DNA of 64,000 nt from Nemertoderma westbladi. Taxonomy: Eukaryota; Animalia; Xenacoelomorpha. Below, piece after piece: positions 2,743 through 56,053 of this stretch. Location of the stretch: the NCBI GenBank assembly GCA_032718475.1, contig JAUCBJ010007108.1, forward strand, positions 21,406 to 85,405, read 5' to 3'. Positions within the stretch are counted from its first letter, which is position 1; every line of letters begins with the position of its first letter. The position numbers were made by a program, and so were the translations under genes. The notes beneath the pieces are model-generated. The model had not been told where the DNA came from, searched no databases, and saw nothing but the letters and a program-made list of their open reading frames with translations.

Positions 2743-3912
2743 TGTTTGCGCTTTTAAGACCTTTGACAGTTTAACCTGCCAAAATTAGAATGTCTTTTGG
2801 ATGATAGATAGTCTTTAGCCTATGACGAGTATTTGATACACTACATTAGCTGAAGCCAGTCTATGCGCAATCATTCACCCGCTGGATATACCCGGGAGAC
2901 TGAATTCGGAAGCTTAATGATTGATGGTGTAAGCCTACTGTATTATTCGACTGATCGTAATATATAATCTCTGACAAATATTATTCACTTTCGGGAAATA
3001 TTAACAGTTCCTTTAGGACGTGGCGCTCTAAATATGTAAACAGAGTTATGACTTAAACTAGACACAACGAAAAGGCTATAGATTCACGTATATGGCGCAT
3101 TCTTTAGGAGATGCTTTGTTATCAGTTACACTCATACACAATGCTGCACAATACTGCACACTAATCTGCCGACCTTCACTAAATTTGGTCACGTATAAAG
3201 AGAGCAACATACAATTTATGTCGGGCATATGAAATAGCATTAGATTCACTTCAAACCACCGTCGCAATCGTTTATCTGTAACCGGTCTCTCTAACCTTTA
3301 GTATATCAAGAAGATTGGGATGTCGGACTATTGATCAGTATTCCGATATAATATTTCATCAACAAATATAACGAATAACCGACAGTAAAAGCAGTAAAGT
3401 TAAGGTATAAATGATTATTAAGTGAGTGAATTAACTCGGTAACTCGTTTGCATTGGTATGGTTAGGTTAGATAACAGATATACGTTCTATAATTAAGCCT
3501 ACTAATGTAAGACTAAAGACTGAAACACGGAGGTGCCAAAAGCCGGTGTTCTTAGGCTCTGGGCAAAAACATAACACTGAATTCCTGAGTTTCTGTATCC
3601 ACCTCCAACACAGAGACAAAAAACGCTCTGATTGGTCGACCGAACAACGAGAGAACAAAGAAACAAAGAAATGTCGACGTGGCAATATCAGCTGTTAGAT
3701 CATCATGGTAGCGACACTGTTTTCAAGAGTATCGAGCTTATTGCGTCCCGAAATTGCGGATTATGTCCTCTAAAGTACAAATACAGAAGAAATGGCTTTT
3801 ATGTCCTCTAAAACACCAGTACAGTAAGGACACGGCCTTTTTATGCCCAGTAAACCAACTACAGAGTACTTTACGGGGAAAATAACCGGCTAATTACGCA
3901 AAAGCTTTTACA
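2743..3912 (-). repeat. 3' LTR (1170 bp)
   Basis: Matches 20204-21383 except four substitutions and two small indel/replacements. A short purine-rich PPT-like GGGAGCGG precedes it on the minus strand (3913-3920). Confidence 0.95.
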
Positions 3913-3990
3913 CCGCTCCCAGAAAATGGGATTTAAGTCTATAAAATATAACAAATCACAGTTTCTAAAATATAAAGATACTCTAAACAG

Positions 3991-6822
3991 TTAGTCTTTC
4001 TTACGCGGACGGCGTTTACGCAGTTTTTTGAGGCTAGTAAGAGTCCTTTTCTCTTTGGGGCGAGCCACTTTACTAGGAGGGCTGTAACTCCTGGGTGAAG
4101 GGTGCAATACAATTGCATCAGAAGGTTTCGGATTGCGATCGGTGTATCCGCCGGTCGAGGTACCTGGTTGATCGATATCAACTTCCGTGGAGCGAGGTCT
4201 AACAGCCTTTAGGGCGCGCCTCAGGACAGCAGCTCCTACGGGTCCTTGACGGGTTGTCTGGGCAATGGCGGTAGGTGGACCGTGAGTGGTGAGAAACTTC
4301 CTTGGTTTAATAGTTCTTTCCAACTCGCGTTCTCGGGCTCGATATTCGTAGGGCCGTCGAGATACTTCCTGTAACTCAGGGTGCGAGTTGATAAATAAAT
4401 CGCCATACTCAGGGTCTTGACGGATATAATTGATCAAATGGTATGAAGTAATATCGTTAGGATTGACGTTCCTAAGGTATCTTCTAACAAATTTAGTGGA
4501 AATACACTCACCAACACGCTTCATTAGCTCGTAACTCGGTATGCGTGTTTTTTGTTCCACAGACGCTAATAAATAAGGATGGAACGCGTAAACTCCCTCG
4601 TAAGAGCGTCCAGGGTAGTATCGATGACGGGACTCACAGTGTAAATCCGCGTTAGCTTCCCAAGCTCGGATGTAGCGCAGGGTAATCATTTCATCTACGC
4701 TCTCTAAATCGTGATTAAAGGGGCAATTATAACTGGCATGTCCTTTAAGTTGACAGTGGTGGCATTGAGTCATAAATTGGGGGCAGACTGCAAAAATATG
4801 AGAGTTATTAAGTCTGCAATACGCACAATATATCTCCATCATTGGTTGTTCGTGGAAATAGGAACAGGGTACGTCTGAGTCCATAGGAGTGAAATGGTCT
4901 CTCGATGCGCATAATCGACAACGTTTTCGAGAAACATAGTTAGCGTGTCGATAATCGTATGCGGTGAGACATTGTGGACCTTGATACCACTCTAAGACGT
5001 AGTCGTTATCGCTGCTCCGGGGCGCTGTAGGCTGAATCGCTTCAGCTTCTAAGCATATTGGTTCATCTTCCAATTGCATAGCTGAGGTAGGTGCGGCTGT
5101 CTCCGCAAGCGGACCCACTGTCTGAACTTCGACGACAGAATAACCCGTGGGTATTCGGGGTCTTTGTATAACAGATGAGTGCAAGTTCTGTATACAAACG
5201 TCCTGAAAAAGGGCAAATCCCGCGCTGTTTAGCTTCTCCGCCGCTGAGTCTCTCAGGCTGAGTTTGGTCAGAGCGCGGTCCTTGAACTGACTATCAACGT
5301 TACGGAACGGAGTCAGAAAGCGCCTGAAACATTCAAAGCGGATGAATTTATTGTGTTCATCTAACTTGGCGAGTTTGGTTCCAAGTATTAAGGGATGGGC
5401 GCGTATGGTACGACTGCACACATCGGCTAGCCAACCCGCAAGTGCTGCGTTTTCAAAGATCGTGTATATAGCTAAGGAGGGACGAAGTGGAACACTCATA
5501 AAGCTATACACGGCTCCAGGTGCGGTCAATGGTCCATCAAAGTATAAACGAGAATAATGATCTCCGTATACTTGTTGGTAATTTATAGGATTTCCAACCT
5601 TGAAATTACTTTGAAAGGCAAGATGTCCGATGGAGGTTCGTTGTACTTTGGTAATTCCGCTGGGTGTATTGGCATACATAGTGCGGAAGAAACCTCGGCC
5701 TTCTGCCCAAGGAGCAATCAGCTGAGTATCAACGAAGGGGTATAGAATGTTCTCCATATTCCGAAAGTCGTTCTGTAGGTCTCCATAAACAGCTGAGCCG
5801 ATTTTAAGGATTCCTTCGTTAAACAGCATCTCGAGCACGGGTTGGGGTAACATCGATCCATCGATACCCATGGCCGGCTTGCGCTCGGTGTCGGTGACGT
5901 AACGCTGCGCGAGTTCAAATTGTCCATGTCGGAGTTTCTTTTGTGTCTCAGTAAGAGTTTCAAAAGAATAATCAATAACGTCGGAACACGCTCGAGTAAA
6001 TACGTGGGTAGAACCAGCGAGTCCTCGTATGTGTATCATCCGCGTAGTTCCAAGTTCTCCAACCGGAACGCTACCTTCGTTATCGTAAGTGACAACTCCA
6101 TACATCTCGATAACGTTAAGAGTTTCGTTCCACTCTTTAGTGGCGTTTTCGAGTGTCATTCCCACAGGATGCCACAAGGTAGCACATTCGCTAGCATTAT
6201 GCAGGTCTTTATACTTTAAATATTGTGTGGTATATGTTTCCACATCTCCATATCGTTGTATTCTTTCCTCCTCGAATAACACATCAAGATTCCAGTGCAC
6301 TAAACGAGTTTTGATGAATCCATCAAGATTATACGGAGGTATTGTTTCTTTCTCTATTCTGGAAACATTATATGGTTTTCGAAATGAGTTTACTTTAACT
6401 AACTGATCCAGATGTTTCTGCAGTTGTTCGAGTTCGACAAGATCGAGAGGATTTATTAACGGTAGAAACTTCGGACTATGTGTAGGATCTTCCGGTTTTA
6501 CCATGTAATATTGTTTTAGATTGACGTAATAAGGGTGATCTTTGATCCCATAAAACGAGTCCGGTAAAGGTCTAGCGCGTATGTTTACATCGTGTACCAT
6601 GCGACGGACAAGATCTGCTCTATTGTCCGGAGGTTCAACGAGTATACCATCGACACGAGCGGATTCGATGGGCGGACGCTGCAACAGAGGAGCGTCGGCG
6701 ATAAGATCGCGAGATCTTAGGTTGATATCAACCGGTTGGGGTTGTGCCGTCGCAAAAAGTTTGTCTCCGAAATGGGGAACCATCGAGGGATGAAGAATGG
6801 TTTTAGAGTAGAGATCCGTCAT
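3991..6822 (-). CDS. Accessory retrotransposon ORF (943 aa): putative WRN/EXD2-like DEDDy 3'-5' exonuclease, CCHC zinc knuckles, basic C-terminus
   Basis: ExoI-like VVTYDNEG; ExoII-like LPQPVLEMLFNEGILKIGSAVYGDL..FVDTQLIA; ExoIII-like PLRPSLAIYTIFE. Knuckles CAYCRLNNSHIFAVC and CHHCQLKGHASYNC. Tail KKLRKRRPRKKD. Confidence 0.7.
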   Translation of the reverse strand: MTDLYSKTILHPSMVPHFGDKLFATAQPQPVDINLRSRDLIADAPLLQRPPIESARVDGILVEPPDNRADLVRRMVHDVNIRARPLPDSFYGIKDHPYYVNLKQYYMVKPEDPTHSPKFLPLINPLDLVELEQLQKHLDQLVKVNSFRKPYNVSRIEKETIPPYNLDGFIKTRLVHWNLDVLFEEERIQRYGDVETYTTQYLKYKDLHNASECATLWHPVGMTLENATKEWNETLNVIEMYGVVTYDNEGSVPVGELGTTRMIHIRGLAGSTHVFTRACSDVIDYSFETLTETQKKLRHGQFELAQRYVTDTERKPAMGIDGSMLPQPVLEMLFNEGILKIGSAVYGDLQNDFRNMENILYPFVDTQLIAPWAEGRGFFRTMYANTPSGITKVQRTSIGHLAFQSNFKVGNPINYQQVYGDHYSRLYFDGPLTAPGAVYSFMSVPLRPSLAIYTIFENAALAGWLADVCSRTIRAHPLILGTKLAKLDEHNKFIRFECFRRFLTPFRNVDSQFKDRALTKLSLRDSAAEKLNSAGFALFQDVCIQNLHSSVIQRPRIPTGYSVVEVQTVGPLAETAAPTSAMQLEDEPICLEAEAIQPTAPRSSDNDYVLEWYQGPQCLTAYDYRHANYVSRKRCRLCASRDHFTPMDSDVPCSYFHEQPMMEIYCAYCRLNNSHIFAVCPQFMTQCHHCQLKGHASYNCPFNHDLESVDEMITLRYIRAWEANADLHCESRHRYYPGRSYEGVYAFHPYLLASVEQKTRIPSYELMKRVGECISTKFVRRYLRNVNPNDITSYHLINYIRQDPEYGDLFINSHPELQEVSRRPYEYRARERELERTIKPRKFLTTHGPPTAIAQTTRQGPVGAAVLRRALKAVRPRSTEVDIDQPGTSTGGYTDRNPKPSDAIVLHPSPRSYSPPSKVARPKEKRTLTSLKKLRKRRPRKKD

Positions 6823-6954
6823 AAGGATTTGCGCTTCGGGTTGAGCTAAAGCCGCTTCTTCTCTCTCATCCAGTTCTATATGTCTCTCCTCGAGCTGATT
6901 CTCCTCCGCTTGTTGTTGTAGACGCTCATCTAGAAACTCTTGTAAAGAGTAGGT

Positions 6955-8235
6955 TCATCCACGTTCGATGTCCTCCTCGAGATTTTGTATTTCTCTATCG
7001 AACTGGGGTAAAGCTAATTCCTTCACCGCTTGGACTTGTTGCTGCAATTTACGCTTCTCCAAACAATCGTACGTTCCCTTTCCGATTTTCTGCCGAATAG
7101 CGTCTAATGCGTTTCGTACGACGCTCTCTTCGACTTCCGTAACGGGTTGGATAGAGGTGAAGCCGGGACGGTTGTATGGGTTAAACGGCGATATGAGATG
7201 ACCACGTCCCAATCCAGCTAGGTAGGGTTGGCGAATGTCTCGTGAGCCTACTACCGGAGTGCCACCGATCAACTGTTCGGGTAACACTAGATCTTTGAAC
7301 AGTGAGTACAGTTCGGGAGGATCCGTGATACTATTAGGGTCAAGAGTTTGAGGTCTAACTGAGGAATGCGGAGGTCTGACCGAGTATTCCGGAACTCTGA
7401 TCATCGGTTTGTTCAAGGATCGCTTGAGTCGAGCGACCGCAGGGGACACGTCGAACAGGTTTCGCTCGAAACTCCCGTAAGTATATCGTGTAAAACTGTG
7501 TTTAGCGCAACGTATCCGCGGATGTTTATGTCTTTCCGTTTGCTGATTGGGTCTAGGGCATTCGTCGCAGTAATACCAAAGACGCATGTCCTGCAGAGGA
7601 AACGCGGGTGATCGTTCTCCAGTTTTACAATATTCCTCCATCTGTTCGAAGCTATCCGGGACGACAGGTAGCGGTCGATCGGCGGTAAGATACATCATAG
7701 TGAAATAGAGTCGTTTGAGTTCTATCATAGGATCATGATGTATACCTTGAGGATATCGAGTTTCGAGATTTTGTTGACTGGCAATATTGAGGTATGTTTC
7801 TCTCAAGAATTCCAGATAATCGTTGAAGTCGTTGCGTTTATCCGGCTCTTCAACGTCTTCTCTCTCGAGTCTGTTTCGAATAGAGTTCTCGTGTTCTATT
7901 CTTGGCTTATCGTTCCGATTCCGCTGGGTATGATATTTAAATAAAACCATTTCCCTTTCGGTATCCACATCGTCCGTGTCGTGTAAATCGATAGGATGGC
8001 CGGTAGTTAAGAAGTCCATATACGTACCATTACGATGCGTATAACGAGCGGTGAACTTTCTATAGTCCAATTCACGCGTAAGTTGCTCCGGGGACATCGG
8101 CGGTTCGATATAACGACCATCATCCTCCGTAGTAGTTGGACCAGCGTCGCCGTGTATCAAGCTATCGACAAACGCTTGTAAAGGTAGAGTATATCGCTCC
8201 CTGATACCAAGATCATCTTCTATCAACTCAGTCAT
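6955..8235 (-). CDS. N-terminal part (426 aa) of the accessory ORF, unknown function; in frame with the 943-aa ORF across one TGA
   Basis: Long open frame with ATG. The 44 codons between the TGA (6955-6957) and the ATG at 6822 are open and in frame (TYSLQEFLDERLQQQAEE...). Confidence 0.7.
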   Translation of the reverse strand: MTELIEDDLGIRERYTLPLQAFVDSLIHGDAGPTTTEDDGRYIEPPMSPEQLTRELDYRKFTARYTHRNGTYMDFLTTGHPIDLHDTDDVDTEREMVLFKYHTQRNRNDKPRIEHENSIRNRLEREDVEEPDKRNDFNDYLEFLRETYLNIASQQNLETRYPQGIHHDPMIELKRLYFTMMYLTADRPLPVVPDSFEQMEEYCKTGERSPAFPLQDMRLWYYCDECPRPNQQTERHKHPRIRCAKHSFTRYTYGSFERNLFDVSPAVARLKRSLNKPMIRVPEYSVRPPHSSVRPQTLDPNSITDPPELYSLFKDLVLPEQLIGGTPVVGSRDIRQPYLAGLGRGHLISPFNPYNRPGFTSIQPVTEVEESVVRNALDAIRQKIGKGTYDCLEKRKLQQQVQAVKELALPQFDREIQNLEEDIERG

Positions 8236-9954
8236 ATCTGCTATGAGTTTATCAATATTATAATGAGTTTATATATATATTAGGCTAGCGGGCGTCGCTG
8301 CCTACCCCTCTTTTGCCCCCGGACAGTGTAAGATCCTCAGCGCCGATGTACCGTCGTCGCTGTGCTTTCGCCAACGATGTAGCTACACAACGACAACGAT
8401 AACCGGCACAAGTCACTTCACTGTCCGTCCCAAAGGCTTAGATGTACTGCAGGTTCTTCTTGGAGAGTTAGGGTTACTTTCACAATTGCGACTCGCTACT
8501 GTAAACACACCTTAGTAGTAACATTCACCTACAAACGCACAAATTCAACACAACTGCAACAAACTGCACACATTCGGGCCATTTGTCCGTTAGTCAGTAC
8601 CTTCCAGAATGTCACTGTATTTATTATATATCCTTGGATACTAGCGGTGTGCTATTTATTCCCTATGCTATTCAATGGGGCATGCCTTCTATTGTTCTTT
8701 TAACTCACTTCTAATTCTAGCGTGGTTGTTGCCATGGTGACATTATGGAAAGCTAGCGGTAGAATTAGGGTAATTCTCATGCATACAGATCTGGGATGCT
8801 ATTTAATAGTAATTCTTTAATGGTCAATATCCCCTTTATACATGATTCTATGAATTTTATCGGCTATTGACTATACATTAGAGATTCTCGCACACAAATA
8901 CACTTAATAGAGTGAATCTCCGCTCCCATGATCTATTAATTAATGGAATTTTGGGAATGTTATAAATTGTATAAAATGACAATTTATTAAATTCATTGAA
9001 ATATCTGAATTTAAATTTATTCCCGTAAATTTTATTATTTAATGTTAAATAGACACAATTTTATTCCAGAACGTGTCTGGGGACTGGGATCCTTGATTCT
9101 AGGAATTTTGTCCTTTTAAGAGTATCGGTAAGTGCTACGATATCTTAATCGACTAGAATTTTAAAGGATCTGATATTTGACAGATTTTTGTAAATATTAA
9201 TAATTAATATTTAGGATGGGCACCAGTTTATTCCAGAACTTGTCTGGGGACGTTAACCATTGATTCTAGAAATTTGTCTTTCAAGTATATCGGTGGGTGC
9301 CGCGATATCTTAATCGACTAGAATTACAGATGGTCAAAGGGTTTAACAGATTTATTTTGCGTTATACGCTACTGTTAAAGGGACATCACGCTACTATATG
9401 TATTATTTAATATACGGTATGAGAGCAATATCGCACGAAGCAATGTCAGTGTGAAGAGGCAAGTCGTTTCCAAGGTCTACCCAGAGCTTGGTTTAGCCGA
9501 GACACGAGGATCTGAACTTTGCATTCCTAATACTCTGCCTACCAATAATACTTGAATATAGTAGTGGCTTTATTGTACTTTAATAAGTACGAAGATTTCA
9601 TCTTACTGTAGTCACGTATTGATAATGTAATACGGGCAGTAAGGAAAGAGAAAAAGAATTATTTCTCGCCGTCGCACTAAATATATAATATACGTAATTA
9701 AATAATAAACGCGAATATATATTGCACTAATCTACTAAATAATCTCTAAAATACCATACTACTAAATAAAATTAAATAAAACGATTAAAATAAAATTACA
9801 TAATAATACATACATAAATATAAAAATAAAACAAATACAAATATAAAGTAATATGGTCACACACCCACTCCAGCCGTTGTTAAGTTGGGGAGTCCCTAGA
9901 TGTTTGTTGGATTAGGGAGGTGGTCGTGGGAAGAGTATCTTGTCTCCCATAGTT

Positions 9955-11675
9955 TCAGGAGAGTTCTCTGTCTCTTTCCAGTAAACATAAACGTCCCACT
10001 GGGCGATTGAGCTGCTGCGTCTCGAAGACAATTCCCGGTTTCTTGAAGTTACGTCGCATGACGACGAGTTCTACCGATCGCACCAAACCGTCATCCGAGA
10101 TGTGCGTCTCGATTATACGACCTGTCTGCCACCGCTTACGTGGAAGATCCACATCCACAATAAGCACCATGTCTCCAGCGCTGACGTTTTCTTGCTGCGC
10201 AAACCACTTAGTTCGAAGTTGTAGCGTGGGCAGATAATGTTTTTCGAAATGGTCAGCGAAACGACGGGATAACAACTGCATGAGTTGCCAAGTTTGTAGA
10301 CAGTATTCGTCTCCGTCTGTGATTTCCGATTGTGGGAGCATGGCTACAGGTTTCTTCAGTAGGAAGTGCGCGGGTGTTAGCGCTTCCAGGGAATCGGGAC
10401 TCGATGAGACTGGCATAAGCGGTCTCTCGTTGAGATAGGCGGCGATTTCTTCCATTAACGTCCGCAAAAGTTCGTCGGTGAGATAAGCGCGGCAAGGCAC
10501 TATAAAATGAAATGCTGTCTTCACACTTCTTATTAATCTCTCCCAACTTCCTCCCCACCAAGGGGCGTCGGCGGCGTTGAAGGTCCAACTAGACGCTGTT
10601 ACTCGTAGTTGGTCGTCCACCTGTCTTTGGTTCCAATCTTTGACGTAAGCTTTGATTTCATTGTTGGCACCAATGAAGTTTGTTCCCTTATCAGATCTCA
10701 TCGTGTTACTAGTGCCAAAGCGAGCGATCTGTCGTCGTAAGCTTAATAGAAAGCTGTTGGTAGATAAATCGTTCACCATATCGAGATGGATGGCTCTACA
10801 AGTCATACAAACAAAGATTACACACCATCTCTTGACTATAGTCCTAGCACGATATACTTCAATAGGGCCAAATAAATCCACACCGGTATTAGTAAAGGGT
10901 GGTTCATAAAAGCTTACTCATTCCCTAGGTAATTCTGCCTCTCGCTGTGTTAAAGGCCTACTGAATGCTTTCCTACAGGGTATACAGTTCCTAAGAACTT
11001 GGTTCAGAGCTCTACGGGGTTTATAAAAATAATAGCGAGTTCGAATTTCGCTAAGAACTCGTTCTCTACCAGCATGATAAAGCTTACTGTGAACATCTAC
11101 AATCATCTTGACTTGTATTTCAAGATTTCTAATGAGTATGGGGAACTTAGTATCAAAGGATAATGGGGCATTCGTTAACCTTCCTCCAACACGTATCAAC
11201 CCATCTATCATTGTGCTAGAGAAACGATCCCTTAAGCGCATCTGTGGATTTCTCAACAACAGGAAATACTTATCGGAATCTTCATAGCATTGTAAGAGTC
11301 TCAGCATCTGTTTGTTGGTTTCTTCATGCTCCTGATAACTGATCTTCTCCTTCAGAAACCTGTCGGGTATCTTATATGGGGGAAGATCTTTAATAACATG
11401 GACCTGCACTGATGTGATTGGAGCGGTATCACCCTTTGTTTTCATCCCAGAGTAGTGATGGTGAAAACATCTCTTTAAATATGTAACGGCCTTACAAAGC
11501 CGATTCCAGGAACTGTAGTGATGCATCGCTCTCTGCAGAAGAGGTGAGAGTCCTTGCGAGACGTCTGGTATGCCAGATTTCCAATCTTTATCACGGATTT
11601 CCACAATGGGTTTATTTGTGGCTGTGGGTTTCTGATCCAAAGCGTCGTCTCCGGAAGTATGTAGTACAGACAGAT
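9955..11675 (-). pseudogene. BEL/Pao integrase region (HHCC + DDE + DUF5641-like tail) with one nonsense codon
   Basis: VHSKLYHAG...CIPC; LPRE*VSFYEPPFTNTGVDLFGP (in-frame TGA at 10918-10920 where Arg is expected); SDKGTNF; WERLIRSVK; YLPTLQLRTKW...DGLVRSV. Joined to RT/RH by a frameshift at ~11680-11735. Confidence 0.92.
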
Positions 11676-14600
11676 CTACTGTGGGTTTGAATAACTTCGA
11701 TTTACTCGCCTGAGTTTTAGGCTTGACTTTGCCTGTCTAATTTCTGCTGTAGTAAGATGAGGAGGCCATTCTTCTTCTTCTTTGTAGAGGAAGTCGGGTC
11801 CACCTAACCAGTCTGGAGTATCTACCAGTTCTTGTGGAGTTGCTCCCCTGGAAGCGATGTCTGCTGGATTAATCGTTCCGGGGCAATGTCTCCATTGATC
11901 CATCGTCGTGCGACTGAGTATAATAGCTACTCTGTTGGTAACGAAGACACTGAACTGACAGACTTCATTGGTTATATACTCCAACACGAGTAAAGCGTCG
12001 GTCCAATAGACAGTTTTCTCCAGGGGATAGTCTATCTGTTCTGTTACATTCCGGCCGATGGCTGTAGCGTATAGAGCCGCTTTTAACTCCGCTCGAGGAA
12101 CTTTCAACTTGTTGTTTATCAATGCCTTAGAGGTAACCAAGGCGACTTTGATTCCGTCCGGAGTTTCCACCCTTAGGTAGGCTACTATACCGATTCCCAT
12201 ATCGCTGGCGTCTCCAAACACATGGAGTTGATATGAATACGTAGGGAGAACATGACCAAAATATGAACGGGAAATTATAAAGTTTTCGATGGCTGGTAGA
12301 GAATCTTCCCATTTCATCCACTTCTTTAATAATTCTCCCTTAAGTGGATCGTCCCATGAGTGGTTTTCAAGCCACATTTGTTGTACTAAACTCCGAGCAA
12401 TCAATATAACTGGGCTAATAAATCCCAATGGATCGAAATAAGTGCTCAGGATACTTAAACAAATCCGTTTAGTCCGAACTGGATTATCTCGCTGTTTTAA
12501 TTGGAAAAACAGGATATCTCTTTCTGTGTCCCATTTCAAACCAAGGGTCTTAGTTTCTGGGAGATCATCCTTTATTAGATCTAGGTCTTTTGTTCCTCGA
12601 TCTTCTACCGGGATCGACTCCAGAAACTCACGGGAGTTGCTAGTGAATTTAGTTAATCGAAATCCTCCTTTCTTTAAGCATTCTACCGTTCCTTTAGCGA
12701 CCTCAATGGCTTCTTCGACTGATGGAAGGGACTTCAGATTATCGTCCATGTAGATGTCTCGTTTGATATTGTCGATCACTTCTTTAGAGAAGGCGCCTCG
12801 GTTGTCATCCGCAGTGGTGCGCACCACGGAACAGGCGTTTGAAGGGCTCGAGATTATACCAAAGGCTTGGATGGTCATCCAGTACTCAACAGGTTTCTTA
12901 TTGAGGTCTCCTTCAGGCCACCACAAAAATCGTAGGCTATCTCGATCCCTATCCAGCGCTTTGACTTGTAAGAACATGCCTTCTATATCTGAGGCGAAAG
13001 CAATGGAGTATTGTCTTAATCTTAATAGTATTCCCAACAAGGATTGGAGTAAGTTGGGTCCGGGTAACAATTCAGAATTAAGAGATTGACCCATATAAAG
13101 GGCGGAACCGTCAAACACCACTCGTACTTCATGGGGTTTACCGGGTTTGGGAATGTAATGGTGAGTTAAGTAATACGTTCTCTCAGTTATAGGGGTTTCT
13201 TCCGGTACTAGCTCCGCATATCCCTTGCTAATAAACTTCTTCAACTGTGTTTGATACATTTCTTTAGCTGAAGAATTTGCCGTAAGGCGTCGATGTAGTT
13301 GAGCAATTCTTTTCTCTGCCAAAGGTCTGTTGTTAATGAACTTTGGTTCTCGCTTTCGGAAAGGAAGACCGATCTCATATCTACCTTGATCTTTAAGAAA
13401 ACGAGTAGTTGTCGCTTGGATCTGCTTGGCTCTTTCTTCCTCCACTGATAGGGCCTTATCGTAGGAGTTGGGCTCTACAACCTCTTGAGTAAAGAATCTT
13501 ACGGCGTGTTCATCCCGAGTCTTGGCATTATAACGTTCAATGACGTCATTAAGCTCGTCGTTATAGTCGTCTCGCTCGGATGGGAGAAGTAGTTGGCATA
13601 AGTTCACTTGATTTTGCCAAGTCTCGCTTTCCTTAAGGAGATCGATGGCATTCTCCTCATCGAAGAGTTGATGTATATCGTCGTTGTCTGAGGAGTATGG
13701 AGTTCCCTCAGTTGGATCGTCGAACTCACTGTTCTCAACTTCCCATTCTCGCACTTGATATACCTGATCTTTAGGTAATCTTTCCATGAGAGTTCTACGG
13801 GAAGGGCCAGTAAAGTACCAACCTACTCTAGTTCTTACCGCATAGGTTTGTAGTGGCTGCGGTTGAGCAGGCCGTTTCTCCAATGTCTCGAGCGCCTCAT
13901 GCGCGTTTTGGCCGATGAGTATTTGTACTCCAGGATAATCAGTCTGGAATCGAGGTATCTTAAGATGTTGGATGCTCTCATCCTCGTCCCAATTATAAAG
14001 GTCTGCTTGAGTAGTAGCGAAGTTCTTTATAGCCACCATTTTCACTGACCTTATACTATGTTCTCCTAGTTCGTCCTGGGGGGTGGACAACGCACCTACA
14101 TAATAATCCGCTGTTACTGTAGATTTCCAAACCTGCATAATTCCTGACATGTTTAGCTTAGTTCGGAACTTGGGTTGTCCAGCGAATATGTCTTCGGCTA
14201 GCTCTTTGTCGATGAATGTTCCTGTACTACCGGAGTCAAGGAGGGCGTTCACTAGATAACTCCTTTTTGGTCCGTGGACCCTTACCTGTACCACAGGAAA
14301 TTCTCTAATCCCTACATTGGAAGTTGGCGCTTTCCAAGATGGTTGTCGATCAGAAGTAGTTAGAGCGAGGTCAATGTCTGTATCTTTTTCATAAATGAGT
14401 GCTCGATACACTGTGGTATTTATCATGTAACAGGATTCGTTTTCGTCGGAGAACTCGTCCGTATAGAATCCTTCCATCTCAGATTGATCAGTGTCGTTCA
14501 CATCACTGAATTGGACATGTAGTTCGGAATCACTTACCTGACTCGGACTATTTCGCTCAAATTCAGTGTGCAACAAGATATGATGTTTCGCACCGCACTT

Positions 14601-16157
14601 GGCACATCTTGTGTCAGAGTAACAGGTTCGCCGTTGGTGTCCATGTCTGAGGCAATTATAACACAACCGCTTATCCCACATGACTTCACGTCTCTCAGTT
14701 AATGATTTCTTTAGAAATTCATCACACATATTTAAGCGATGGGTCCCATCACATAGCGCACATTTCGGTTTGATGTTACTTACCTTACTCTGAGTAATAT
14801 TGTGTACACTTGTCTTTTCTTCTGGCTTTCTCACCTGAATTCTCTTGGGAGACGTAGGAGGAGTTTTTCTTACCTGTTCTCTCCTGTCATTGGTTCGAGA
14901 CTTGAATTTACTTACCTGATCTTTAGGCATTTTATTGACATAATAAGATCTGTCAGTGTCTTTCCCGCTATCCTCTCCTTGAGAAGTCTGGCTTTCGCCG
15001 TCGTCTGTATAACACACTGGTGTTACCTTTCTCCTAGAGACGGGTTTTTCACTTACCTTGTTTTCCGGTGTCTTCTCTCTGGACAGTTTCAGGAGCTGTA
15101 ATTTCACTTCTCCATCTAGGAATGACATGAGATCAGCCATGGTAGGGTCTCGTCGTTGTTGTTCCATCATATATAACACTTTCTTATCCCAGCGTGTACC
15201 TACTCCACCCTTCGGTAAAGTAGAAGCCACTGCTCTAATAACCATAGCACTCTGATACTCATGAGACTTACCTAGCCAATCTAATTGTCTGCAGATCTCC
15301 TGAATCTCATCGGAAAACTCTATAATTCCGCTGCTAATAAACTTTCGGGGCGCTACTAACTTTGCATACAAATACCCAGCTATGTTATTCCTATTACCAT
15401 ACCTGATGTTTAGTGTATCCCAAACTTGTCTTAATCCGTCTGGATGTCCAATAAACTTTAACGCCATTAACTTGGGAGATCCTTCCAAGCACTCGATGAG
15501 GAATCTAAGTTTCTCTCCATTAGAAAGTACAGAGTTCTGTATGTTATCTTTGTAATATTCATTAAAAGGTAACCATTTCATCTCATCTCCATTGAACTTG
15601 ACGATCTCTCCCACCTTTACCGCTTGCCGGGCTTCGGTTCTAGCCATTTGACGCGTAAAACTTTCTTGGGCCATCGTGTTATTTAATATCGAGTTATCGG
15701 TATATAAATTTCTCGGATTATGATCCGTTCTATAGGGAATATCATTATCAACAGGTCTATAATTACCCTTAATAGGGTTCACTATAGGAGTTTCTACCTC
15801 GCTAGCAGTATAGATGCGTGTAGGCTCCACACCTTGCGCATGAGATACTTCAGACCTAACAGGTTGACACATTGTTACAGGGGGTGGTGATATACCCCTT
15901 TGTGTATTTACTAATTTATCGCGTTCTAGCGCGATACTTTGCTGCACTTCTTGCAACTCTAACCTACTTTCCCTTACTGTGCCCTTGAATTGCTGAACAG
16001 TCTCCTGCATCTGTCCGAGCAGGAGATCCATCCCCCGTCGTCTCTCATCCACCCATTCGACCGCCGAAGCGGGATTCGCCAACGTTGTAGCGGGAGGACG
16101 AGGGACAACGGGCGACAAATCTTGAATATTTCGCTGTTGTGCTGTTCTGCTGGGCAC
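11676..16157 (-). CDS. BEL/Pao Gag-protease-RT-RNase H polyprotein (1493 aa)
   Basis: KFNGDEMKWLPF...EKLRFL (DUF1759-like); CALCDGTHRLNMC, CYNCLRHGHQRRTC, CAKCGAKHH; protease LLDSGS; RT SDIEGMFLQV...YMDD; RNase H LHVFGDAS...PRAEL...YWTD...NPADIASRG. Confidence 0.95.
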   Translation of the reverse strand: MPSRTAQQRNIQDLSPVVPRPPATTLANPASAVEWVDERRRGMDLLLGQMQETVQQFKGTVRESRLELQEVQQSIALERDKLVNTQRGISPPPVTMCQPVRSEVSHAQGVEPTRIYTASEVETPIVNPIKGNYRPVDNDIPYRTDHNPRNLYTDNSILNNTMAQESFTRQMARTEARQAVKVGEIVKFNGDEMKWLPFNEYYKDNIQNSVLSNGEKLRFLIECLEGSPKLMALKFIGHPDGLRQVWDTLNIRYGNRNNIAGYLYAKLVAPRKFISSGIIEFSDEIQEICRQLDWLGKSHEYQSAMVIRAVASTLPKGGVGTRWDKKVLYMMEQQRRDPTMADLMSFLDGEVKLQLLKLSREKTPENKVSEKPVSRRKVTPVCYTDDGESQTSQGEDSGKDTDRSYYVNKMPKDQVSKFKSRTNDRREQVRKTPPTSPKRIQVRKPEEKTSVHNITQSKVSNIKPKCALCDGTHRLNMCDEFLKKSLTERREVMWDKRLCYNCLRHGHQRRTCYSDTRCAKCGAKHHILLHTEFERNSPSQVSDSELHVQFSDVNDTDQSEMEGFYTDEFSDENESCYMINTTVYRALIYEKDTDIDLALTTSDRQPSWKAPTSNVGIREFPVVQVRVHGPKRSYLVNALLDSGSTGTFIDKELAEDIFAGQPKFRTKLNMSGIMQVWKSTVTADYYVGALSTPQDELGEHSIRSVKMVAIKNFATTQADLYNWDEDESIQHLKIPRFQTDYPGVQILIGQNAHEALETLEKRPAQPQPLQTYAVRTRVGWYFTGPSRRTLMERLPKDQVYQVREWEVENSEFDDPTEGTPYSSDNDDIHQLFDEENAIDLLKESETWQNQVNLCQLLLPSERDDYNDELNDVIERYNAKTRDEHAVRFFTQEVVEPNSYDKALSVEEERAKQIQATTTRFLKDQGRYEIGLPFRKREPKFINNRPLAEKRIAQLHRRLTANSSAKEMYQTQLKKFISKGYAELVPEETPITERTYYLTHHYIPKPGKPHEVRVVFDGSALYMGQSLNSELLPGPNLLQSLLGILLRLRQYSIAFASDIEGMFLQVKALDRDRDSLRFLWWPEGDLNKKPVEYWMTIQAFGIISSPSNACSVVRTTADDNRGAFSKEVIDNIKRDIYMDDNLKSLPSVEEAIEVAKGTVECLKKGGFRLTKFTSNSREFLESIPVEDRGTKDLDLIKDDLPETKTLGLKWDTERDILFFQLKQRDNPVRTKRICLSILSTYFDPLGFISPVILIARSLVQQMWLENHSWDDPLKGELLKKWMKWEDSLPAIENFIISRSYFGHVLPTYSYQLHVFGDASDMGIGIVAYLRVETPDGIKVALVTSKALINNKLKVPRAELKAALYATAIGRNVTEQIDYPLEKTVYWTDALLVLEYITNEVCQFSVFVTNRVAIILSRTTMDQWRHCPGTINPADIASRGATPQELVDTPDWLGGPDFLYKEEEEWPPHLTTAEIRQAKSSLKLRRVNRSYSNPQ

Positions 16158-18022
16158 AGGTAGCTTGGACTGTGCAATGGGAATTTAGAGGTAGGTTCAG
16201 GGAGTACAGGTGTCTCTACCACCGAAAGGGTGGCTTCGGGAACAGGCCTAATTATTTCAGGCTCATCTACTATAGTAGGGAGTCTTTCTATTGTAATTAT
16301 TTGGTCTGTGGGTTCTGTACTACCTACGTTGGTGTTATTTAGTTGCCTTCTAACAGCTGGGGGCAAATCAGGCAATTTCTGACGGTGGGCCATTCTTTTA
16401 CGTCTGCTTAGGCGAGATCGATTTCCTCCGCCTTCAGTGTCGGTGGTATCGCCTTCCTCAGATGATGTATAACCTTGTCTTTTGGGAGTAGATCGATTCA
16501 TCATCTGCATATTACTAGCTGTTAACTGTTTATTAAAGTTGTCTTGTCTCTCTTGAAGATTTTCCAACTCTAGTTGGGTTGTCTCTTCAGATGCCCTCCG
16601 TTCTGCTTCTGCCACTGCTATTTTTCTTTCCGCTTCGGCCGCCTTTCTTTCCGCTTCTGCTGCTGCCACTTTTCTTTCCGCTTCGGCCGCCTTTCTTTCG
16701 GCTTCTACTGCTGCAGCTGCCGCTTTTGCCTCTGCCGCTGCCACTTTTGCCTCTGCCGCTGCCTCTGCCGCTTTTCTATCCACTTCTGCCGCTTTTCGTT
16801 CCGCTTCTGCCGCTGCCACTGCCGCTGCTGCTGTCTTTCTATCTTCTATACGTTTTTTCTTTACTTGTTCTTCTTGAACCTTAGCGATGCGGATGCTTTC
16901 ATTGAATTTAGCTTGGTTCGCAGCTAACCTATCCACATCGATTGTGTCCAACACACTCTGGGCTCCTTCACTATTAGGGCTAAGTCCATCTAACCTTCTC
17001 CTCAACTCTTCATCACCTAAAAAACGTTGATAGTCTGACAGATAGATGTCAATGGCATCCCTCTTATGCGGCTTCTCTGCCGTCGCTTCACTTTCCACTT
17101 GGGAAAAAGTAGCGTCTGTTGATTCTCCATGGGTTGAGCGCTCCTCCAGCTGAGCTTTCCACTGAGCCGTTCCTTGAACCTGGAGACTCACCCGTTGAAA
17201 CCAAGTCTTTACGGCAACTTGCAACGACGTGTCTTGTCTTCTTTTAGAAGCCTCCTCAAAGGCCGATAAGATTAGCCTAATTCGCAGAATTCTTTCTCTA
17301 ACTTGATAAAGCAGTTGTCCCTGCTCTTGAGGTCCTTGAGGTTGTTGAAACAGTTGTTCTTTTACTCGCTCCATAGAGTTGAAGAATCCCTGGGCGTATC
17401 CGGCTGCGGACCTCTTCCATACAGCTGGATCGATGGTTTCCTTGGCTACTCCCATCCGGTGTATGTCTTCCCAGGCAGCTTCTGATAAATCAAACGGGAG
17501 TCCGGGTCCGGGGAAGTTCCATTGCGACTCGACCATAGACTTCAGTTCTTCCCTTGTGTATCCCTCATAACTATCTTTAGTTGATCGCTTACTTCTCGCC
17601 CAATCGATCTGGTGTTCTTCCACCGCAATCAATAACCTAGTGAGTACGGCTGCAGGAAGGATGAGAAGGGGATCCGAATAAACTGCATCCGTCATCCTTG
17701 CTTCGCGCTTGGGTGTCAGCTCTACAGTATCCTCACTACTGGAGCTGTCGGGCCGCTGAGAAATAAGTTCTTGGCTCGCGGGTTGTTGCTGTTCCGCTGC
17801 TTCTTGGTCCCGCTTGACCTGGGCTCGAGTGCCTATGATAGACCTATGATGTTGGACCAGCCTCGGTTCTGTTATTACTACTGGAGGGATGACTTTCCTA
17901 ACAGTGGGAGGTGAACTGAACTTAGGTGTAGACGGTTCTACACCCTTATCTGAGTCGCAGATAGTTACATCTAATAAACTGTCTGACATGTTCTGCTTAG
18001 TATCAGACATGTTTGTTTGCAC
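15974..18022 (-). CDS. Upstream Gag extension (682 aa) with Ala/Glu/Lys coiled-coil repeats, overlapping gag-pol in another frame
   Basis: Long ORF inside the element with AAEAERK repeats. The gag-pol frame (-1) opens after a TAA at ~16187, so the two frames overlap by ~200 nt. Confidence 0.7.
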   Translation of the reverse strand: MQTNMSDTKQNMSDSLLDVTICDSDKGVEPSTPKFSSPPTVRKVIPPVVITEPRLVQHHRSIIGTRAQVKRDQEAAEQQQPASQELISQRPDSSSSEDTVELTPKREARMTDAVYSDPLLILPAAVLTRLLIAVEEHQIDWARSKRSTKDSYEGYTREELKSMVESQWNFPGPGLPFDLSEAAWEDIHRMGVAKETIDPAVWKRSAAGYAQGFFNSMERVKEQLFQQPQGPQEQGQLLYQVRERILRIRLILSAFEEASKRRQDTSLQVAVKTWFQRVSLQVQGTAQWKAQLEERSTHGESTDATFSQVESEATAEKPHKRDAIDIYLSDYQRFLGDEELRRRLDGLSPNSEGAQSVLDTIDVDRLAANQAKFNESIRIAKVQEEQVKKKRIEDRKTAAAAVAAAEAERKAAEVDRKAAEAAAEAKVAAAEAKAAAAAVEAERKAAEAERKVAAAEAERKAAEAERKIAVAEAERRASEETTQLELENLQERQDNFNKQLTASNMQMMNRSTPKRQGYTSSEEGDTTDTEGGGNRSRLSRRKRMAHRQKLPDLPPAVRRQLNNTNVGSTEPTDQIITIERLPTIVDEPEIIRPVPEATLSVVETPVLPEPTSKFPLHSPSYLCPAEQHNSEIFKICRPLSLVLPLQRWRIPLRRSNGWMRDDGGWISCSDRCRRLFSNSRAQ

Positions 18023-20203
18023 AGTTGAATGCCTACTGCTATATTACAGTCCAAGCAAGTCTAGTAATTCAGTATTAACTGCTAGCCTAGTAATTAATTA
18101 CCGATACTGCTACTCAGTGTAGCGTGATATATATAATATTAGAATACCGGTATGCTTATGGTATATATAAGTATTATTACAGACTAGGTTTTTCACAGAA
18201 ACCGGTATATAATTTTAGCACAAATATATATAAATATATAATAGGCCTATCGTGGATACCGGTATGCAGTTTACACTTATAGTATATATAAGTATAATTA
18301 TTAACTAGAATTAATTACAGAATACCGGTATGATTTCAGCCTAAGTTTATGAAATAAATATAATAAGCCTATTGTAAATACCGGTATGTCAATTATTTTA
18401 GAATAATTGAATTTCTGAATTTTAAGGGTTACTTGGTTACTTTAACTTACTTTATTACCGTTATTTGAGCAGTAGTCCAACTGATATTGAGACCTAATTG
18501 TTATATGGCAGGCCTACTATTTATAAATCGTTTGAGTTGATTTATAATATATATATACCCGTTTAATGGGTTTTGTCAATGTTTGAAATAAATGTTATTA
18601 TTTCTGGGGGAGTCACTACACATAAGCAGTGCGCTCTCAGTGGAGCGCTACTTGTTAGACACTAAAACAAATAATTCTAATTTACCTAAGTTACTTAATA
18701 CTACAAATTACATACAATTCGGGTTGAGATTACAATCTCTAAATAAACACAAAATTTTAATGACAAATACACAAATACGAAATTTTTAGGGTAATTTTAC
18801 AAGAAGTCTACTAACCAGCCTAACAAAGGGTTAGAATATCTGGTTATTACAACGGACAGGTTACTACGGTATTTGAAAATAATAAGTAGTAGTAAATATA
18901 CTGCGCTGTCCAGATAGGAAAAATACCACCGCCTGACGACCTATAACCGTATCGCTATAGGTACTACGTTATGTATCACGGAGTGTCCCTACCTAGAAGT
19001 TAATTACCGCGGTCTACCAGAACCAACGTGCCTATTAACCACTTTACAACACAAATACACTGCCTACACACTAATTGCTTTCGGAAAGCACTGTACACTA
19101 AACCCTAAATTAGGTACAAGTACTTGTATAACAAATAATCAGTAGTTAAAAATACTTGAACAGCCAAAAGAACCACGGTATCTGCCGGAGTGACCAAAGC
19201 ACAAAATCTCCAGTCTTTACCTACGCCGAGCAGCCCTGATGTAGTACCGGGGTTAGTTTAACTATAACGGTATGTATAACAAACACAATTACTGTAGGAA
19301 TAAACTTGGGGAATGAATGTTGCGAATAATAGCATAAACTCTGAATAATAAATATTACGCTACGCGTACAAACTACTCAAACAAAATGCAGACCAAATAC
19401 TGACAGACTACTATCAAGCCTAAACAAACTACGGTATATGCAGACTCCGAAATGATTAGTTAGTATGCGTTCTAACCCAGTAGTACGACTTATTCTTTCA
19501 CAGGGGGTTTACCTCACAGCGCTTGAAGCCCCTACTTTCCTAACTTAGCACTTTATCGCACAGATGCTCTACACACACCGAAATTTCCTCAAACCCAACA
19601 ACAGCCAGACAACTATCCAGCCTACAAATTATCTAAATAAAATTATACGCTACCCGTACAGACTACACAAACAAAGTACAGAGCAAACGCTGGCGGACTC
19701 CTATCAAGCCTAAATAAACCACAGGACATGCAGTCTCCGAAATGGTTAAGTAGTATGCGTTCTAACCCAGTAGTACGACTTATTCTTTAGATGGGGGTTT
19801 ACCTTACAGCTATGGCTGCCCCTACTTCCTAACCGTTCTTTATCAGACATACACTCTACATGCACTGCAATCCGTTCAGACCTAATCAACAGTTAGCCAA
19901 CAGTCAAGCCTTCAAATTATCTGTACAATCTGAGCAGGCTTACACGCCTTCTGCTCAATACTGGCCTACAAATAAATAAAACTGACAGAAATAAGTAAGC
20001 TCCAAAAGAAACAAGGGGTGTACAGTCCCTAATCTCTTAAACAGCCTACCGGTATACAATACCACAATCGAATAATACTGTTGTACCTGTACTGTAAGTA
20101 AGTACCGGTCCGGATGATCAGGCAGTCAGGCCTACTGGTTACCGGTCGACCGGTACTTTCGACTAGATTGCTTACACCGCAATCCAGAAGCAATATCTGT
20201 TAT

Positions 20204-21383
20204 TGTTTGCGCTTTTAAGACCTTTGACAGTTTAACCTGCCAAAATTAGAATGTCTTTTGGATGATAGATAGTCTTTAGCCTATGACGAGTATTTGATAC
20301 ACTACATTAGCCGAAGCCAGTCTATGCGCAATCATTCACCCGCTGGATATACCCGGGAGACTGAATTCGGAAGCTTAATGATTGATGGTGTAAGCCTACT
20401 GTATTATTCGACTGATCGTAATATATAATCTCTGACAAATATTATTCACTTTCGGGAAATATTAACAGTTCCTTTAGGACGTGGCGCTCTAAATATGTAA
20501 ACAGAGTTATGACTTAAACTAGACACAACGAAAAGGCTATAGATTCACGTATATGGCGCATTCTTTAGGAGATGCTTTGTTATCAGTTACACTCATACAC
20601 AATGCTGCACAATACTGCACACTAATCTGCCGACCTTCACTAAATTTGGTCACGTATAAAGAGAGCAACATACAATTTATGTTGGGCATATGAAATAGCA
20701 TTAGATTCACTTCAAACCACTTAACATAGGTCGCAATCGTTTATCTGTAACCGGTCTCTCTAACCTTTAGTATATCAAGAAGATTGGGATGTCGGACTAT
20801 TGATCAGTATTCCGATATAATATTTCATCAACAAATATAACGAATAACCGACAGTAAAAGCAGTAAAGTTAAGGTATAAATGATTATTAAGTGAGTGAAT
20901 TAACTCGGTAACTCGTTTGCATTGGTATGGTTAGGTTAGATAACAGATATACGTTCTATAATTAAGCCTACTAATGTAAGACTAAAGACTGAAACACGGA
21001 GGTGCCAAAAGCCGGTGTTCTTAGGCTCTGGGCAAAAACATAACACTGAATTCCTGAGTTTCTGTATCCACCTCCAACACAGAGACAAAAAACGCTCTGA
21101 TTGGTCGACCGAACAACGAGAGAACAAAGAAACAAAGAAATGTCGACATGGCAATATCAGCTGTTAGCCGTCGTCATGGTAGCGACACTGTTTTCAAGAG
21201 TATCGAGCTTATTGCGTCCCGAAATTGCGGATTATGTCCTCTAAAGTACAAATACAGAAGAAATGGCTTTTATGTCCTCTAAAACACCAGTACAGTAAGG
21301 ACACGGCCTTTTTATGCCCAGTAAACCAACTACAGAGTACTTTACGGGGAAAATAACCGGCTAATTACGCAAAAGCTTTTACA
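20204..21383 (-). repeat. 5' LTR (1180 bp)
   Basis: Direct repeat of 2743-3912. Minus strand has CCAAT at ~21100 and an Inr-like TCAGT at ~20990. Confidence 0.95.
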
Positions 21384-22130
21384 GATATCCTTAGTTTTGG
21401 ATGGATCCATCATGGATGTTGGACGGATCCATCATGGATGTCCTTATTTTCAGACGGATCCATCATGGATGTCCTTATTTCTCACGCGTGTTTGTTTGTT
21501 TGTTTGATTGTTTGTTTGTACACACAACTTGTTCCACTTCATGTTGATGGAATTGGATGAAACTTTGATGATAGGTTCATTATCGGACCTAGTTGTGAAT
21601 GCAAGGTTTTGGTTGCTAGGGACCTGTTGGTTGCGTAGCAACAGTTAATTAATTATAGAATGACCGATCATAATCGTAGAATTCACTCAATCAAATTTCT
21701 GTCGACACCCCATAGGGAGCATCTATTGGACATGCTTTCTGCAAAATTTCGCTTTATTTCGTTCCGAATTGTAGGAGAAGATACATTTCTTACAAACAGT
21801 GTTTTTTTTTACATACAATATATACTACTATATTGTGTACTTCGCCCAATGTTTCGATTTTCGTTATTAGGCTGCCCTGTATAGGCGCGTAATTTATTAC
21901 AACAATATTGGTAGCAATGGATCCGTCCATTATTGCCAGCTCTCGGCTGGCAAGCTTGTTATTATATTTAATAAATACAAAATATTCTGAAACATTTTAT
22001 TTATGTATGATTAGCTACGCAATAGAAATAGGCAAAGGCATACCGCTGTTGACCACATACTCATGAAATAAATAACTCGTTCTAGAATTAAATTCAAAGT
22101 TAAGTTCTAGTATTAAATATAATAAATGTA

Positions 22131-49730: not shown

Positions 49731-51351
49731 TACTACTACTAGGATCGGCATGCTGCATTGCAGCTGCATTTTTAAGAATGCTGTGCCGGCTTGTCGACAA
49801 AATTGCGCCGCCACAACTCCCTATCACCCATGACATTTGCTAGATCATCCGCATCTTCAAAGCCAGTGTCCTTTAAGATGCGTCTCAAAAAAGTCATGGG
49901 CTGTCCACCATGCTTATTCACTCCATGAGGCTGCCAATGTACAAGGTTATGCACTGGCTGGTCCTCACGGCGAAAGCAATGACCTGCAAAGCGGAGGCGA
50001 TTTTGTTCTGGTGTCAAGCTTGGGGGAACCAATGAGACACCTCCAATGTTATAGTGTTTGGTTGGAGATGTGTGCATTGTACTTGACACAATGAACCCGG
50101 CGTAGCATTCTTGTGAATGTGCCATCCAGAGATTTGGTGTCCTCAGCAGTTAGAGCCCAGCATGGATTCCCATAGAGGAGTACTGGAACTATTGCTGCTC
50201 TAAATAATTGGACCTTAAGTTTCCGATTAATTCTCGGTGACTTCCAAATCCTGGAAAGCCTATTCAAGGATGCCCATGCCTTTCCCTTACGTATTCGAAG
50301 GTCTTCACCTGACTTCCGGATCCATGATCCCAGGTAACAGAAGTCATCCACATGCTCAAGCATACCATCCTTTGAGCTTATGCTCATCCGATCAGAGACT
50401 TGCTGAGGACTTTCAAAGTTAACTGTCAAAATTTTGGTCTTTCTGGAGTTAATAAAAGACCAACACTAGAAGAAGCATGTTCTAATGAGCTGCGGAGCCG
50501 TTGGGCTCCCTCTAGTGATTCTGAGAGTACTCATAAGTCATTGGCAAAGTCTAGATCAGTTAGGTATTTGGCAGGATTTCCTCGACTTCTGGAGCCAGTA
50601 GGTGGAGTTATCATCACCCCGTCATCATTATGATGATCTAAGGACATGCTTAGAACATAGTCAACCACAATTATGAACAAGAATGGTGCAAGTGTGTCTC
50701 CCTGGAAGACGCCCCATAACACTTCAAATGGTTCTGTGTCACCGTCAACAGTAGACACAAATGTTGTCGAACCATCGTATACTGATCTGATTGCTGCAAT
50801 AATTTCATCAGGAATCCCATGTAATGAAAGTATGCTGAACATACGTGAGCGAGAGACTGAATCAAAGGCCTTGAAGAAGTCAACAAAGATAACAGCCAGA
50901 TGCCTGCCTTTCTTTTTGATAACTCTTCAATTATCCTTCTAAGTGCCAAAATGGGCTCCATGGTCCCACGACCTTTTCGGAACCCATTCTGATTTCCACG
51001 GAGCAGTCTCTCAATGGGATCCCTGATGCGATGTAATATAATTCTATTGTATAGCTTTGCAGCAATCGAGATCAATGAGATTCCCCGAAAAGAACCATAG
51101 AGTGTTAGGTTGCCCTTCTTGGGAACTGGCACCAACTTATTTGTTTTCATTTCTTGTGGGACTCTTGATGTTCGGTACATGTCTACTATTATGGGATAGA
51201 TGAGCTTTAAACACTCAGGTATTTTAAAGACCTCAGGAGGAACACCATCTACTCCACTGGCACGATTGGTCTTAATGCTCTTTGCAGCAGCCTTCACTTC
51301 TGCAAAGGAGATATCGCCAATGGGAATATCTGGGAGTACAGACTCAGACAC
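49731..51351 (-). mobile_element. 5'-truncated RTE-clade LINE, copy 1 (frameshifted RT)
   Basis: QNGFRKGR, GVFQGDTLAPFLF, LDFANDL, RLRFAGHCFR; (TAG)n tail. Near-identical to 62511-64000. Confidence 0.9.
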
Positions 51352-55780: not shown

Positions 55781-56053
55781 TGTTAAACAGGATTAACGTG
55801 ATTGGTTGCTGCTTAGTAGCAGCTTACTCTAACCATATTACTTGTTTTATACAAAATGGAATAATGTTAACTGGAAAAGCCACGATCTAAGCACCAGTGG
55901 CCTTGCGCAGCTCATCATGTGAGAAAAATTGTTACAGAGTAAAGTATCATACCCTTTGGACGACTTTACCTAAATTATTTCTACAGTTTTAGGAATGCAC
56001 ACAATACAGGGATAGGCAGACAAAGTCTATACCTATATACAACTGTAAAAATC

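Follow-up and report, generated by a model that had tools for sequence, protein, structure and literature searches.

A probable self-priming signal, complementary to its own LTR, in a divergent BEL/Pao retrotransposon of Nemertoderma westbladi

How does an LTR retrotransposon begin minus-strand DNA synthesis when the position next to its 5' LTR does not resemble a tRNA-type primer-binding site (PBS)? The question is raised by a BEL/Pao element on the minus strand of a 64,000-nt stretch of Nemertoderma westbladi DNA, which we analyzed as a whole (hereafter the window; Table 1). For the Belpaoviridae, the ICTV profile gives an 18-nt PBS for tRNA-Arg or tRNA-Gly, tRNA priming and genomes of 4.2-10 kb, and describes replication as poorly understood (PMC8742986). 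The original prediction, made from the letters of the window, proposed that this element instead primes with an 11-nt segment of its own LTR, in the manner of the Schizosaccharomyces pombe element Tf1.

The assignment of the element to BEL/Pao, made in the same prediction, agrees with the Pfam matches, which follow the BEL/Pao order of DUF1759, Peptidase_A17 (4e-36), Integrase_H2C2 and DUF5641. Among the matches listed, all 120 homologues (120/120) carry PF05380 and the best are 38-44% identical to the element protein; those named come from echinoderms, molluscs, cnidarians, a nemertean, a hemichordate and a fish. The features that mark BEL/Pao membership are present, namely the protease-RT-RNase H-integrase order, the LTRs, a polypurine tract and a target duplication. 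As in the ICTV profile (PMC8742986), the element is metazoan-type, with gag ahead of these domains, LTRs of 1.2 kb and a duplication of 5 bp; it departs from the profile in lacking a tRNA PBS, in its 18.6-kb length and in carrying an extra 3' ORF. Because the family is defined by pol phylogeny, the missing 18-nt tRNA PBS would indicate that the profile is incomplete, not that the element is excluded.

Table 1. Features of the element and of its candidate priming signal (window coordinates).
Feature	Position	Strand	Basis or remark
BEL/Pao LTR retrotransposon	21383..2743	-	18.6 kb
5' LTR, 1180 bp, TGT...ACA (ends ...GCAAACA)	21383..20204	-	alignment with 3' LTR
3' LTR, 1170 bp, TGT...ACA	3912..2743	-	alignment with 5' LTR
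5' target-duplication copy, 5 bp, ATATC	21384..21388	-	
Polypurine-tract position GGGAGCGG, before 3' LTR	3913..3920	-	
PBS-position 11-mer ATAACAGATAT, directly abutting 5' LTR, not tRNA-type	20203..20193	-	
Candidate self-primer segment ATATCTGTTAT, exact complement of PBS	20950..20940	-	736 nt upstream of LTR end
Initiator-like TCAGTC, 42 nt upstream of 11-mer	20987..20992	-	motif only
AGAA, could pair with TTCT at 20189-20186	20954..20957	-	possible second helix after 3x3 loop; p about 0.2
Predicted U5 hairpin just upstream of PBS	20217..20257	-	local fold
Predicted leader hairpin just downstream of PBS	20163..20187	-	local fold
N-terminal gag-like ORF, coiled-coil-like repeats, out of frame with next ORF	15974..18043	-	ORF call
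gag-protease-RT-RNase H ORF: DUF1759, weak Asp protease, Peptidase_A17	11676..16184	-	Pfam
Integrase region, two ORFs split by stop (Integrase_H2C2, DUF5641)	9955..11736	-	Pfam
Extra 3' ORF, 437 + 987 aa, one stop	8268..3991	-	about 1425 codons

This copy of the element is young, or recently inserted, but broken. In alignment, the 5' and 3' LTRs are 99.5% alike (6 substitutions and 10 gap columns). The coding region is disrupted by frame changes near 16184/15974 and 11736/11676, the latter leaving the integrase region out of frame with the RT-RNase H ORF, and by a stop near 10918; the RT-RNase H domain itself is an open frame. The N-terminal gag-like ORF matched no Pfam family. The non-coding leader (20203-18010) is unusually long, at about 2.2 kb, and contains a 188-nt repeat (19350-19537/19640-19827) and a 121-nt tandem repeat (18155-18388); a 1.7-kb spacer (9954-8269) precedes the extra 3' ORF, and the total length of the element is close to double that stated for the BEL/Pao family. 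It is inserted in a satellite of 22/31/53-nt units, and its 5-bp target duplication has one mismatch, ATATC on the 5' side and ACATC on the 3' side (2742-2738). The 29 other satellite units counted also read ACATC. On the minus strand, ATATC and the first TGT of the LTR (21388-21381) are identical to the candidate primer over its first 8 nt; the ATATC is probably a chance C-to-T change.

The extra 3' ORF likely carries a DEDDy-exonuclease-like domain together with CCHC knuckles, an assignment that we treat as a lead only. It had an atlas score of 0.90 with 30/30 hits in PF01612, and one of its homologues gave a weak PF01612 hit. The first acidic residue of the domain appears to be replaced in the alignment. 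A full scan of 1.84 billion representatives returned only two homologues, both weak, word-index searches returned none, and the AlphaFold model failed to fold (pLDDT 32). In the passages available of PMC5408684, ORF3 of the rotifer LTR elements Juno and Vesta is a DEDDy exonuclease, and the window element would share with them an extra 3' ORF with a domain of this kind; it differs in being a BEL/Pao element, in the joining of the domain to CCHC knuckles and in the standing of the domain as a lead only. That the ORF trims RNA ends is speculation. Elsewhere in the window, a 1407-aa open frame (55943-60166, plus strand) with WD40, Roc, COR and CARD domains has on either side a copy of a repeat with a LINE-like RT fragment (about 49731-51214 and 62512-64000). 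At 33297-36384 on the minus strand, three ORFs in a row, none matching a Pfam family, lie between inverted repeats (about 32348-32955 and 38702-39104) and are possibly a DNA transposon.

As judged by sequence pattern, a tRNA-type PBS is absent next to the 5' LTR. The original prediction had noted that no TGG adjoins the LTR, and the first TGG indeed lies at 20186, 17 nt away, without the T-loop signature expected of a tRNA 3' end. Applied less strictly, the same pattern recovers the LTR-adjacent tRNA-type sites of two relatives (L012 and L027). What does adjoin the LTR, with zero gap, is an 11-mer (20203-20193) with an exact complement inside the LTR (20950-20940); the match is exactly 11 nt, as predicted, and the complementary segment has a second copy in the 3' LTR at 3481-3471. 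For the BEL-like element Cer7 of Caenorhabditis elegans, a self-encoded primer RNA has been proposed, in the form of a separate, internal tRNA-like repeat. The window element is unlike Cer7: at offsets 0-24 no complement longer than 9 nt was found outside the LTR match, and ARAGORN predicted zero tRNAs in the 64,000-nt window. We rejected an element-encoded internal primer because the LTR match was the sole complement of more than 9 nt at these offsets. A splice-junction primer within the window LTR was likewise rejected, since the LTR has no GTRAG donor and the best spliced match was no better than the contiguous one.

Could an 11-nt match have arisen by chance? The 11-mer was present in 23, 55 and 89 of 20,000 Markov mimics of the LTR (orders 1-3), and the chance of a single-site 11-nt match is about 0.1-0.4%. 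Throughout the internal region, 5 of 16,281 11-mers had a complement in the LTR, the PBS 11-mer being counted among the five. A looser rule (at least 10 nt, six offsets) was satisfied by 2 of 100 blocks from the leader of the window element and, for this reason, the 11-mer by itself cannot carry the claim of self-priming. The same count favors an alternative in which the match is accidental and the element is primed by a host RNA that a TGG search would miss, such as a tRNA half, an internal tRNA segment or a small RNA. Half-tRNA priming is indeed described for copia lineages in passages of PMC6317226. Contigs of one sequencing run (X1, share 0.14) cover the element with diverged copies, at depths too thin for covariation or a start site (PBS bins, 0-2.7; 11-mer bins, 0-4.5).

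The evidence that bears most on the question comes from relatives of the element. These were collected by RT-RNase H alignment and are distant, with about 40% RT identity; 80 loci were kept of 547 confirmed in metagenome contigs and 19 more came from genome contigs. Two scans of viral contigs yielded none. The 19 loci in genome contigs (L081-L099) are BEL/Pao elements in contigs of bacterial genome bins, which probably represent contamination with DNA of the host animal. We tested the 20 loci in which a direct repeat fixes the 3' end of the 5' LTR, leaving out L097, whose repeat stops before the LTR end is reached, and any locus with a repeat running off the contig. The rule asked whether a site 0-5 nt past the LTR has a complement of at least 10 nt in the LTR of the same element, either contiguous or spliced, the spliced form having a GTRAG or GTACG donor and a pyrimidine-rich YAG acceptor. 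By this rule 16 of the 20 relatives have a self-complement of 10-15 nt, with letters that differ from those of the window element. Thirteen of the 16 form it only across a splice junction inside the LTR (10-15 nt, introns of 67-451 nt) and the other three are contiguous (10-12 nt), like the window element. Under the same rule the controls gave 5/2000 leader blocks, 0/20 reversed sequences and 7/380 cross-family pairs, and four of the seven passing pairs were sister families.

The four relatives that failed were L012, which has a tRNA-type PBS, L037 and L050, with doubtful LTR ends, and L085; if a different CA end is taken, L037 shows a contiguous match of 11 nt. The count is to be read with the history of the rule, which was fixed only after 16 of the 20 loci had been seen; three of the four examined after the pattern was seen pass (L082, L083 and L089) and L085 fails, two of the three being sisters. 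Several of the 20 loci are likewise sister families, the LTR start is approximated for seven, and L022 and L028 have imperfect LTR ends. A de novo scan for further cases also returned evident chance hits; we used its candidates in descriptive sets only and kept them out of the 16/20 count. Between the sister families L082 and L083 the two partners differ by matched changes, with an exon end CAC and a PBS GTG in one and TAA and TTA in the other (L082:1770-1795, L083:1862-1887; introns of 338 and 451 nt). Compensatory change between PBS and LTR, named in the original prediction as a check, is thus seen in this pair, and complementarity is kept in 16 of 20 relatives, all of them distant.

Given the absence of a tRNA-type site, the exact 11-nt complement and the same relation in most testable relatives, we consider it likely (probability roughly 0.7), from the sequences compared, that the element primes minus-strand DNA synthesis with the 11-nt LTR segment of its own RNA and not with a tRNA. 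A local fold (z -3.7) agrees with this reading, its centroid leaving the PBS unpaired between two hairpins. The central claim of the original prediction, self-priming in a BEL/Pao element, is supported mainly by the relatives (the 16 of 20 and the L082/L083 pair), whereas its detail of a Tf1-style primer made of the first 11 nt of the RNA is not. Its notion of an independent or acquired innovation needs revision as well: self-priming would not be a one-off of the window element, the trait being widespread in the marine-type BEL/Pao elements sampled.

How well does the window element fit the pattern of its relatives? In a comparison set of 28 relatives, one per family and including candidates from the de novo scan, the modal paired length is 11 nt (15/28), as in the window element. 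All 28 carry GT at base 1 or 2 of the paired segment (25 GT, 3 AGT), whereas the window PBS starts with AT at offset 0, and the loop between primer and LTR end is 736 nt in the window as opposed to 44-222 nt in the 25 relatives measured; both differences count against self-priming. In an RT-RNase H tree of 39 rows, from which six loci were dropped for short matches, the window RT branches outside the whole tested group (SH-aLRT 91) as a long-branch outgroup with a highest identity of 44%, so that the relatives support self-priming in the window element only by analogy. The window element is atypical, sharing the trait as an outlier in tree position, first bases and loop. The accidental-match alternative draws on the same three differences. 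Set against it are the exact abutment on the LTR, a length equal to the mode of the relatives, the low single-site chance and the occurrence of the trait in 16 of 20 relatives, and we regard priming by a missed host RNA as improbable. Within the tree, the contiguous forms do not group together but occupy four separate branches, interspersed with spliced ones. A tRNA-type branch (L012:55-80, L027:16-45) also lies among the self-complementary families, with modest tree support; it counts against self-priming in the window element and suggests switches between tRNA priming and self-priming.

If the element primes itself, does it do so exactly as Tf1 does? In the strict form of this mechanism, a sub-case of own-RNA priming, transcription would start precisely at 20950 and the primer would be the capped first 11 nt of the RNA. 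The length of exactly 11 nt, the zero offset and the ATAAC start all recall the PBS of Tf1, for which a passage of PMC11042837 gives the ATAAC start cited in the original prediction. The bases at -1/+1 are T/A, a pyrimidine-purine step. The 11-bp helix (-10.5 kcal/mol) forms in one of ten folding windows, the one that begins at 20950 (20950-20150; probability 0.63-0.93). Its probability is at most 0.09 in the other nine, which counts against the pairing, and the result vanishes when 100 nt are added to the folding window. The promoter signals are also unfavorable to a start at 20950. A TATA-like motif is missing at -30, while motifs of the initiator type occur at -42 and -99; the first of these, TCAGTC, is the initiator-like motif that the original prediction had placed about 40 nt upstream of the 11-mer. 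In the 28 relatives, neither TATA nor initiator motifs gave a positional signal, and a search of the window LTR for AATAAA and ATTAAA found neither.

The relatives also point away from the strict Tf1 form. Upstream of the paired segment, a second helix of at least 4 Watson-Crick pairs after a 2-5-nt bulge occurs in 14 of 28 relatives against 1.5 expected, a geometry that was chosen post hoc; an unconstrained free-energy test gave only p 0.068. If real, the second helix would mean that the RNA begins upstream of the primer, unlike that of Tf1. In the window an extended duplex is not significant (p 0.2-0.4) and does not match the geometry of the relatives. Taken together, we find a primer that coincides with the capped RNA end rather unlikely. 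The apparent extension of the pairing into a larger helix in the relatives is also what one would expect if the pairing were selected for RNA folding, as in packaging, dimer formation or a splicing/translation switch, with priming achieved otherwise; the cleavage and extension that self-priming calls for are, moreover, taken from Tf1. A folding role would not account for a paired segment that starts, without exception, where a PBS would lie, 0-5 nt from the end of the LTR, or for the replacement of the tRNA site by the pairing, the tRNA-type L012 being without a self-complement. We therefore consider a purely structural role very unlikely.

For own-RNA priming, we propose the following course, in which the start site, cleavage and extension are all modeled on Tf1. 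Transcription would start at or upstream of 20950. The 11-mer would then anneal to the PBS, predicted to be open between its two hairpins, and close a 736-nt loop. The RNA would be cut 3' of 20940, probably by the RNase H of the element as in Tf1, and the reverse transcriptase would extend the new 3' end directly into U5, producing about 736 nt of strong-stop DNA. Once strand transfer has taken place, the copy in the 3' LTR would serve to restore the primer segment. Most relatives would have to splice out the LTR-internal intron before a primer exists, and would have to retain that intron in the 3' LTR part of the RNA. The contiguous form in the window could be what remains of a junction once its intron was lost, or a sister state that is not spliced. 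Copying of a spliced 3' LTR could generate contiguous forms, which would fit their scattered positions in the tree.

Self-priming has been described for Tf1 and Tf2 of S. pombe and Tj1 of S. japonicus, in the Tf1/sushi group of Ty3/gypsy (passages of PMC7175516, PMC4600332 and PMC11042837), and further passages on self-priming in LTR elements are found in PMC5443660 and PMC3601003. As far as these passages go, the window element has in common with the Tf1/Tf2/Tj1/sushi elements a PBS complementary to its own LTR, a length of 11 nt, the ATAAC start and the absence of a tRNA site. It differs in superfamily, in its 736-nt loop and in that start and cleavage are here proposed. The Tf1/sushi group is defined by a Ty3/gypsy chromovirus pol and the pol of the window element is BEL/Pao; the element is therefore not a member, though like the group in its PBS. 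Its BEL/Pao relatives depart further from Tf1, with primers that mostly span a splice junction and pairing that seems to extend upstream. Since the trait is widespread and mostly of the splice-junction form, the ATAAC start shared with Tf1 more likely reflects convergence or chance.

Self-primers have also been predicted for Tcn1 chromoviruses and for the TAR (Houba, Osr-1) copia elements (PMC6317226, in part). As with the window element, self-priming in these cases was deduced from sequence, and the trait arose in more than one superfamily; they differ in being plant or fungal gypsy or copia elements, and the available passages of that paper name no BEL/Pao case and no splicing. We found no report of BEL/Pao self-priming in the literature searched, which took in few subscription journals or Repbase entries, and term look-ups returned nothing in the text covered of PMC554778, PMC3118150, PMC6238403, PMC2774666, PMC11117352, PMC8220671 and PMC13524379. 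The feature is real and is most likely a self-priming signal in a family not reported to use this mechanism, here in a divergent, intron-less form.

More broadly, it seems reasonably probable that a large branch of marine-animal BEL/Pao elements abandoned tRNA priming and primes itself, usually with a primer that host splicing puts together by removing an intron from the LTR. The 18.6-kb, exonuclease-bearing window element would be a divergent outlier of this kind with a contiguous Tf1-like 11-nt primer, acquired independently of Tf1 or by intron loss. If this is true, self-priming would extend to a third LTR superfamily and would be common in animals, and most relatives would need host splicing before reverse transcription could begin. 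BEL/Pao elements in which no PBS can be detected would be accounted for, and such elements would be annotated differently. It would also become possible to test directly whether RNA-RNA duplexes are cut by the RNase H of BEL/Pao elements, as they are by that of Tf1.
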